Below are positions 16,701 to 19,700 of a stretch of DNA of 64,000 nucleotides, piece by piece; position 1 is the first letter of the stretch, and every line of letters begins with the position of its first letter. The notes under the pieces were generated by a model. The model was not told the DNA's origin, made no database searches, and worked only from the letters and a program-made list of their open reading frames with translations. Source of the stretch: Owenia fusiformis (lineage: Eukaryota); the NCBI GenBank assembly GCA_903813345.2, contig CAIIXF020000001.1, positions 23,312,001-23,376,000 of the forward strand. The letters run 5' to 3'. A program made the position numbers and the translations under genes.

Positions 16701-19700
16701 CGTCTGATTCAGGTGCCAAGAACTTCACAGAAGCCATGCGTATGGGATCAGAGATCTACCATCACCTGAAAAAAGTAATCAAGGCAAAATATGGTCAAGA
16801 TGGTAAGGAATTACAATGCTTGTCTTATTCAAATAAGTGAAATGAGATGCATACATGTATGAACTGATTCCACAGATAGGTTTAATATTAGAAATAGACT
16901 TACACAAAAGCCCAGTTTAAACCAGTTGCATTTTGTTCCCAGTTTTTGTAATTACATTGTACATAAGACTTCTTACATGTAACTGAAAATATAAATAATG
17001 TCCCCATTTGATGTTTGTCGTCTGATTAAAACTACCTGTATTGAAATATTCACCATTTGGTTTTACTACAATTCATTTTAAACTTTCAGCCTGCAATGTT
17101 GGAGATGAGGGTGGCTTTGCCCCAAACATCCAGGTCAACGATGAAGGTATGTTTAAGTAATGCACTTTGATATGAAATATATTAAGATGGTTTGATGTTG
17201 AAAGATACAAAAATGTTTATGTTCATAGAACCGTATCTTATATATTACAATACTACATCCCACCATTGTCATTGCAGCCCTTAAGTTGGTTACCACTGCT
17301 ATTGCTGTTTATGTTCATAGAACCGTATCTTATATATTACTACATCCCACCCTTGTCATTGCAGCCCTTAAGTTGGTTACCACTGCTATTGCTGTTTATG
17401 TTCATAGAACCGTATCTTATATATTACTACATCCCACCCTTGTCATTGCAGCCCTTAAGTTGGTTACCACTGCTATTGCTGTTTATGTTCATAGAACCGT
17501 ATCTTATATATTACTACATCCCACCCTTGTCATTGCAGCCCTTAAGTTGGTTACCACTGCTATTGCTGTTTATGTTCATAGAACCGTATCTTATATATTA
17601 CTACATCCCACCCTTGTCATTGCAGCCCTTAAGTTGGTTACCACTGCTATTGCTGTTTATGTTCATAGAACCGTATCTTATATATTACTACATCCCACCC
17701 TTGTCATTGCAGCCCTTAAGTTGGTTACCACTGCTATTGCTGTTTATGTTCATAGAACCGTATCTTATATATTACTACATCCCACCCTTGTCATTGCAGC
17801 CCTTAAGTTGGTTACCACTGCTATTGCTGTTTATGTTCATAGAACCGTATCTTATATATTACTACATCCCACCCTTGTCATTGCAGCCCTTAAGTTGGTT
17901 ACCACTGCTATTGCTGTTTATGTTCATAGAACCGTATCTTATACATTACTACATCCCACCCTTGTCATTGCAGCCCTTAAGTTGGTTACCACTGCTATTG
18001 CTGTTTATGTTCATAGAACCGTATCTTATATATTACTACATCCCACCATTGTCATTGCAGCACTTAAGTTGGTTACCACTGCTATTGCTGTTTATGTTCA
18101 TAGAACCGTATCTTATATATTACTACATCCCACCATTGTCATTGCAGCACTTAAGTTGGTTACCACTGCTATTGCTGTTTATGTTCATAGAACCGTATCT
18201 TATATATTACTACATCCCAACATTGTCATTGCAGCCCTTAAGTTGGTTACCACTGCTATTGCTGTTTATGTTCATAGAACCGTATCTTATATATTACTAC
18301 ATCCCACCATTGTCATTGCAGCACTTAAGTTGGTTACCACTGCTATTGCTGTTTATGTTCATAGAACCGTATCTTATATATTACTACATCCCAACATTGT
18401 CATTGCAGCCCTTAAGTTGGTTATCACTGCTATTGCTGTTTATGTTCATAGAACCGTATCTTATATATTACTACATCCCACCATTGTCATTGCAGCCCTT
18501 AAGTTGGTCACCACTGCTATTGCCAAGGCTGGCTATGAAGGCAAGATTAAAATTGCAATGGACATTGCAGCCTCAGAATTCTATAAAGATGGAAAGTATG
18601 ATCTAGACTTCAAGAGCAAAGACTCTGATCAAAGCAAGTGGGTAAGTAACGTGAGAAAAAGCACAATTGCCAGTAAATAAAATAAGTCAAGTATCAAGTC
18701 CCTTATCCCTCCACTTTAAGTACTTTACTTCCAGAGCTGGAGGTGAGGTATGGGGAAATAGAAAATACAATAAAACATTTTTCAATCTGAATGCCTCAGG
18801 GACCAGTCAAAAGTGTTCATATTTCAAGGTTTTATGTGAGTCAATGGGAGGTGTTCATATAAGAGATGTTTGGATTAAGGAGGTGTTTGGATATACAGGT
18901 TTTCTATATCCCATTGGACCACCTCATCTTCTCACAACTCTACTGACACGTAACTGTACTGAAAATGTGGTATATCATAATAAAGTTTATCAGAACTGAG
19001 GCCTATCGCAACATGCTAAATGTAATATTCCTCTATGAATTGATTATTTTTTGAAAAACTTAATGGAACAAATCACTTAAATTACAATGCATTGCAGTTA
19101 ACATCTGATGCCCTTGGTGAAATATACAAGGACTTCATTGCCAACTACCCAGTGGTTTCTATTGAAGATGCCTTTGACCAAGATGATTGGAAGGCTTGGT
19201 CCAAACTCCAATCACAAATCGACATTCAGTTAGTAGGGTAGGTACATTATTATATATATATTGTGTCATTCATCCTATATGGGCATACACTATACAGTTA
19301 TTACTTAATATGGTAAGAACATTGCCATATACAAGTTTCTTGACCATCTGGTAGTAAATTACCATATATAGGCATTTAATAGTATAAACATGAACATTTA
19401 AGATATTTTATTACTCACCAAATCTCTTAATACTGATGAAAAAGTATCTTCAAAATGACACATTGAGCCTTCAGGGAACTTTTATTTACGTATGTATGTT
19501 TTTGTACCATTATTATAAGCTTCTCTTATTTCCAGTGATGATCTGACGGTGACCAACCCCAAGCGAGTCCAGACAGCTATTGACAGTAAGGCCTGCAACT
19601 GTCTTCTTCTCAAGGTCAACCAGATAGGCTCTGTCACTGAGGCTATTGATGCGTAAGTTATGACACATAATGACAACTAACTTACTAGAGTACAAAATAC

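Follow-up and report, generated by a model that had tools for sequence, protein, structure and literature searches.

The enolase gene of the annelid Owenia fusiformis raises the question how a single donor selects its partner among 15 acceptors which are almost alike, and whether the upstream acceptors give rise to protein forms of their own. Intron 7 of this gene ends in a tandem array whose units each repeat the boundary between intron 7 and exon 8, and only the last unit is joined to the body of the exon. All positions refer to the window, which is the whole stretch of 64,000 nucleotides that was analysed.

The enolase gene and its repeated intron 7 / exon 8 boundary

The gene, which lies on the + strand, is complete and intact and comprises 12 exons. 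A script search for a GT-AG splice chain yielded 12 exons from 13732 to 20425, whose translation (436 amino acids plus stop) is exactly P0001. This protein is a database-annotated product of O. fusiformis with 436 residues and matches the gene letter for letter. A second annotated product of the species, P0002, represents a longer form of 460 residues. The features of the gene and of the array are as follows:

13732..20425, + strand: enolase coding region, 12 exons, every intron GT-AG, spliced translation identical to P0001
11465..11521, + strand: alternative upstream coding exon of P0002, located by tblastn with residues 1-19 of P0002 at 100% identity
17090..17146, + strand: exon 7, 57 nt, donor GT at 17147-17148
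17147..17213, + strand: unique head of intron 7, 5' of the array, delimited by the sequence and the edges given by Tandem Repeats Finder
17214..17305, + strand: unit 1, 92 nt, with the first decoy acceptor (AG 17276-17277)
17306..18436, + strand: units 2-14, 13 x 87 nt, with decoy acceptors at 17364...18408
18437..18523, + strand: unit 15, with the acceptor of the annotated mRNA (AG 18494-18495), the true initial 28 nt of exon 8 and a unique C at +14
18496..18641, + strand: exon 8, 146 nt, donor GT at 18642-18643

The enolase domains PF03952 or PF00113 (Enolase_N and Enolase_C) were recognized by a Pfam scan on all seven single-exon translations (7/7, E 1.9e-16 to 3.4e-17). The peptide of exon 8 aligns to residues 229-277 of the PDB enolase 5wro_A (E = 9.7e-18), and 42 PDB enolase sequences match this exon. 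The spliced frame is uninterrupted and contains the N-terminal as well as the C-terminal barrel domain of enolases. P0001 and P0002 were the only O. fusiformis products among the 74 matches listed in a protein search restricted to 250-797 residues; with one gene of the species among these matches, enolase looks single-copy in O. fusiformis. P0002 gains its 24 extra residues before the usual start via the upstream exon (11465-11521 with 13708-13824).

Intron 7 is with 1349 nt longer than the ten other introns of the gene (260-1232 nt). The array sits within this intron and runs straight into exon 8 via its last unit. Tandem Repeats Finder reports a single array at 17214-18523 with a period of 87, 15.0 copies, 98% matches, no indels and a score of 2470. 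Head-to-tail units of tens of bases with such high identity are those of a minisatellite or VNTR. The acceptor decamer GTCATTGCAG occurs 15 times (17268...18486), always at a spacing of 87 nt, and the first exon-like base of each unit lies at 17278 + 87k, the last one being 18496. Each unit is made up of the final 59 nt of intron 7 and the initial 28 nt of exon 8, arranged head to tail, which makes the array a local duplication spanning this boundary. A 35-nt piece taken from the intron part of the unit has 15 matches in the window and no other copy outside the array within these 64 kb, while none of 100 shuffles contained any match.

These results agree with most of what a preliminary description, made from the letters of the window, had claimed for the array. 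The tandem boundary repeat with 15 copies was confirmed by Tandem Repeats Finder and by the decamer count, as was the composition of about 59 nt of intron plus 28 nt of exon, by which the donor at 17146 faces 15 near-identical acceptors. The motif GGTCACC is indeed restricted to the last copy; the others read GGTTACC, and unit 14 reads GGTTATC. The unit length of 87 bp applies to units 2-15, but unit 1 is five letters longer (92 nt), the extra letters lying about 25-30 nt upstream of its AG.

Twenty public runs match parts of the gene, none of which is recorded as RNA, and the contigs of four of them (X1, X3, X5 and X16) were placed. X1, X3 and X5, which originate from three studies, cover introns and show no splice joints, and are therefore DNA runs. 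One contig of X3 (17005-17221) spans exon 7 and extends by a few letters into the array, and another one (18443-18681) starts in the last unit and continues through exon 8 to intron 8. A third contig of this run (18269-18385) lies wholly within the array and exceeds one unit with its 117 nt, which means that it contains a unit-to-unit joint. In X5 the depth at 18486 is 255 compared to about 8-15 in the flanks. In X1 four bins of the array have depths of 209-394 and two of about 50, while the flanks amount to about 50 per single-copy contig and to roughly 70-140 when summed per flank bin. More than one sample thus contains the array in multiple copies.

Probable selection of the last acceptor

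Both annotated products (2/2) join exon 7, which ends at 17146, to the last acceptor, with exon 8 starting at 18496. The main enolase mRNA would be the one with this junction, at the level of annotation. According to the genome paper of the species, the gene models were built from RNA-seq alignments, curated junctions, Trinity, Mikado, Augustus and PASA, and RNA-seq support is given for 31,678 of 31,903 transcripts (99.29%) (PMC9977687). We infer that P0001 and P0002 derive from this annotation. The preliminary description had stated that junctions leading only to 18496 would make the locus a case of exon definition and not an isoform generator; the annotated junctions do lead only there and would by this measure point to exon definition. 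The fourth run, X16, has contigs on exon 10 and a loose end at 19535 which carries the end of exon 9, and therefore looks RNA-like. It has no contig on exons 5-9, conserved genes losing contigs to a filter in this kind of placement.

The strength of the splice sites offers little that could distinguish the last acceptor. With matrices built from 11 sites of the enolase gene, which include the scored site and are illustrative only, the true site scores 8.5, and among the decoys eight score 9.3, two 8.8, one 8.5 and three 4.8. Judged by sequence alone, the decoys appear as good as the true acceptor. The 15 modules are almost alike from -59 to +28, and GT sites within the unit score at most 1.5 compared to 7.5-11.4 for the 11 real donors of the gene. 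The modules differ in what follows past +28: the true exon continues with 62% purine, whereas the decoys continue with the 59 nt derived from the intron, which contain 37% purine and 39% T.

The silent-decoy reading is built on this difference. The decoys would be passed over for three reasons: each of them runs after 28 nt into pyrimidine-rich, intron-derived sequence, the units contain no donor site, and the purine-rich body of exon 8 together with a strong donor 146 nt downstream is joined to the last copy only. Selection would thus be a matter of exon definition, in which the intron-like spacers would silence the upstream sites and the donor at 18642 would direct the splicing machinery to the closest upstream acceptor, which is the true one. 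Such a choice of the nearest upstream acceptor under exon definition follows a review (PMC3488318), and in cases reported for competing 3' splice sites silencer-like sequence between them leads to repression of the intron-proximal site (PMC2095810). A counterpoint is given by the first decoy: it lies 130 nt from the donor of exon 7, would form the shortest intron the gene could form, and is transcribed first, and intron definition could favour it.

We also looked for an RNA structure that might loop out the array, and discarded it, the sole inverted pair being weak with 19 nt and 79% complementarity.

In the first-AG scanning model, scanning begins at the chosen branch point. Each unit contains a branch-point-like CTTAT at -33, and there is no AG between this motif and the unit's own acceptor. 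With such a site in every unit and no intervening AG, first-AG scanning is not violated by whichever acceptor is chosen, and the conflict with this model that had been seen in the skipping of 14 decoys was misplaced.

Taken with the annotated products, the array is most likely a tolerated boundary repeat rather than a source of novel protein forms. That it is a tolerated minisatellite whose decoys are ignored through exon context is the reading we regard as probable. If the decoys are truly silent, the locus represents a natural experiment in which 15 modules are alike from -59 to +28 and only the one attached to the exon body is chosen. Exon context would then outweigh the strength of the site and closeness to the donor in Owenia, despite the short intron offered by the nearest decoy.

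Possible alternative roles of the upstream acceptors

Decoys which are unproductive could still act as a brake, in that the array slows or lowers correct enolase splicing and its copy number works as an allele-specific dial of expression. In the human ABCA7 gene a longer VNTR in intron 18 is associated with reduced expression and skipping of the exon that follows (PMC5954066), which would be the precedent for such an effect. The array depth ratios differ among the runs of the three studies and hint at unlike array mass per sample (low in X3, high in X5 and X1), but contig depths cannot yield a copy number. Enolase, apparently a single-copy gene, is presumably required at a high level in O. fusiformis, which speaks against a brake. 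Altogether we consider such a role unlikely.

The preliminary description itself favoured a ladder of isoforms. According to this proposal a measurable share of the transcripts uses upstream acceptors and encodes enolases with 1-14 hydrophobic inserts of 29 residues that escape decay. Part of the anatomy speaks for it: the acceptor module is present 15 times in near-identical form, always with a branch-point-like site that no AG separates from the acceptor, the decoys reach scores like that of the true site, the first of them is only 130 nt away from the donor, and the frame is open across the array. In ABCA7, moreover, the splice site of a neighbouring unit is used in about 2% of the transcripts, which then retain one additional unit (PMC5954066).

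The open frame deserves a closer look. The enolase frame stays open for 483 codons (17229-18680). The unit corresponds to 29 codons and is free of stops in this frame, so that splicing to the first acceptor would lengthen the protein by 14 x 29 = 406 residues, to an enolase of 842 residues. To this extent anatomy and arithmetic bear out the proposal, which had counted on up to 406 added residues and no premature stop. As a special feature, however, the open frame does not stand. A second + frame is likewise open across the array (17176-18606). When the 28 exon letters were kept, the cyclic frame remained open in 37% of the cases (7339 of 20000) when the intron part was shuffled and in 31% (6238 of 20000) when random 59-nt pieces of the window took its place, and it is open for five of the 11 acceptor regions of the enolase gene itself. 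As only one length in three is divisible by three, these rates come down to about 0.10-0.12, or roughly one boundary duplication in nine, and no selective explanation is therefore needed. The in-frame, stop-free unit would be a chance property, with the consequence that a mis-spliced product would escape nonsense-mediated decay. The 15-fold repeat itself is far beyond chance. For annotation the locus holds a warning, as repeats that span a boundary yield long open frames resembling coding sequence.

The read-through translation of the array was the eighth protein of the Pfam scan and carries an enolase domain at its exon-8 end. Its matches to DUF7921, DUF3775, MASE5 and BphX were rejected; none of the stretches passes alone, and they were taken as summed repeat noise.

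Proteins containing the repeat peptide were searched for in several ways. None was found among proteins of 250-797 residues, where the best query cover was 17% among the 74 matches listed. None was found above 797 residues either, a range which includes the predicted 842-residue form from the first acceptor; the five matches were all fusions from other organisms. With exons 6-8 of P0001 as query, no short run-derived fragments of Owenia enolase were obtained, the best identity being 83% among the best 120 of 1944 matches. A representative library of 1.84 billion entries gave 456 matches, none of them at E <= 1e-30, and matches to the repeat part were only 23-25% identical. In terms of database evidence, which is not RNA, the products make use of one acceptor, where isoform-producing alternative 3' splice sites would appear as at least two. 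Short-read pipelines drop multi-mapping junctions, and assemblers collapse repeats. An 87-nt ladder could for these reasons escape annotation as well as the protein databases.

The ladder of isoforms found no support in these results, as both annotated products are spliced to the last acceptor and the repeat peptide is absent from the protein searches. In addition, the insert would be placed at about residue 224-229, within the catalytic barrel domain, where harm would be likelier than use. We regard an isoform generator as improbable. If the decoys were used, the in-frame unit would lead to aberrant forms of an apparently single-copy enzyme, and copy number would become a selectable trait. 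The broader proposal of a copy-number-variable acceptor VNTR, which is either in use through minority, tissue- or stress-dependent upstream splicing or tunes the amount of enolase mRNA per allele by its length, has in our estimate little chance of being true; an array that is used or tunes output would offer a natural polymorphic test bed for the choice of the spliceosome among identical acceptor modules.

Finally, it is very improbable that the array, or most of its copies, is absent from the animal: near-identical tandem units are a classic site of copy-number errors and the evidence comes from contigs and not from reads, but the DNA runs of three studies gave contigs within the array as well as across its left and its right edge, with array depth above that of the flanks in X5 and X1, so that the array is not an invention of the assembly, and the long reads published for the species, for which an N50 of 25-30 kb is given (PMC9977687), far exceed the 1.3-kb array and would easily span it.

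Origin of the array, related systems and other repeats of the window

Returning to the reading of a tolerated minisatellite, the array would be young and would have originated when a stretch spanning the end of intron 7 and the start of exon 8 was duplicated in tandem within a functional enolase gene, with later growth by unequal exchange. Intron 7 would have been enlarged by the array from about 130 nt to 1349 nt, and 14 copies of the initial 28 letters of exon 8 would have been turned into intron. The array would in this way represent a route by which exon letters become intron, and would illustrate that introns can grow tenfold in one step while the protein is unchanged.

The variants of the units fit such a history. 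Units 2-8 are identical to one another, and the edge units 1 and 15 share their states at -13 and +2. Units 10-14 carry three types of variants, and units 11-14 repeat in pairs with a periodicity of 174 nt, corresponding to two units. This is the pattern that would be expected of recent growth by unequal exchange, with ancestral states retained at the edges, and the recent unequal exchange that had been proposed from the alternating variants of the right-hand units gains from it. The second base of exon 8 (18497) shows a synonymous C/A polymorphism in the three DNA runs X1, X3 and X5, and the variant is the one also found in units 10, 11 and 13, which suggests an exchange between decoy units and the true exon. 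For the five extra letters of unit 1, one later insertion in this unit is the simpler reading; alternatively, the founding unit could have had 92 nt and have been shortened subsequently.

Tandem exon duplications with mutually exclusive splicing, for example in Dscam, also consist of head-to-tail gene segments, each with an acceptor. The enolase units differ from these in that they contain no donor-like site and are not exons, two thirds of them being intron sequence. No unit of the array amounts to a complete exon flanked by an acceptor and a donor, the best GT of the unit scoring 1.5.

The closest described case that we found is the VNTR in intron 18 of human ABCA7 (De Roeck et al. 2018, PMC5954066), and the enolase array may be seen by analogy as its acceptor-side counterpart. 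The ABCA7 array has a 25-bp unit, starts with the donor of exon 18 and contains a donor in each unit. In both genes a tandem array abuts an exon, a splice-site consensus recurs in every unit, and the canonical or annotated site is the one adjoining the exon. They differ in that the repeated site of ABCA7 is a donor, the unit contains no exon sequence and is out of frame, and the copy number is described as ranging from 12 to about 427 (PMC5954066). The enolase unit comprises an acceptor module plus 28 exon letters, has 87 bp, is in frame and occurs in 15 copies, and the likeness is drawn at the level of DNA only.

Two further systems are related in part. The Rogers model, as presented by Hellsten et al. 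(2011, PMC3265369), likewise assumes an intragenic tandem duplication that copies splice signals, with the redundant coding copy being spliced out and the protein unchanged. In contrast to this model, the enolase array makes no new intron; the acceptor is included in the duplicated segment, an existing intron grows, and the amplification is 15-fold. The competing 3' splice sites described by Kralovicova and Vorechovsky (2007, PMC2095810) resemble the enolase locus in that several acceptors share one donor and are separated by silencer-like sequence. The cases given there are, however, pairs of unlike sites in human minigenes, whereas the annelid gene has 15 like sites that are known from sequence. 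Word searches of the open-access literature, which are no proof of absence, returned no description of a multi-copy acceptor array.

A second boundary of the enolase gene is duplicated as well:

14281..14411, + strand: second, older boundary duplication in the enolase gene, 67 nt x 2, 84% identity

This duplication copies the last 15 nt of exon 2, which ends at 14295, its donor and 52 nt of the intron. The annotated mRNA takes the first donor, that is the copy attached to the full exon, and splicing from the second one would lengthen the mRNA by 67 nt and cause a frameshift. Two of the 22 coding-exon boundaries of the gene are hence straddled by tandem duplications, which argues that such boundary duplications are tolerated and fairly ordinary in the Owenia genome. 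Tandem arrays are frequent in the window, with nine arrays in 16 rows of the array list. The window is AT-rich (GC 0.30-0.41 in 2-kb steps).

Several other sequences were noticed on the way. A satellite with a unit of 136-148 nt, 87% matches and 9-11 copies is found at 12043-13590 and, 30 kb apart, at 44067-45368; the first of these stretches lies in the interval that separates the alternative 5' coding exon (11465-11521) from enolase exon 1. A very young array of 44 nt x 8.0 copies with 97% matches lies at 35084-35437. Within intron 8, positions 18762-19003 hold a dispersed high-copy repeat, at which the contig depth of X1 rises to about 1600 compared to about 100 in the flanks; it shows many loose ends into unlike sequence and is present also in the RNA-like run X16. 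On the minus strand an open frame of 239 residues extends over 24984-25703 and is probably an exon of a neighbouring gene.
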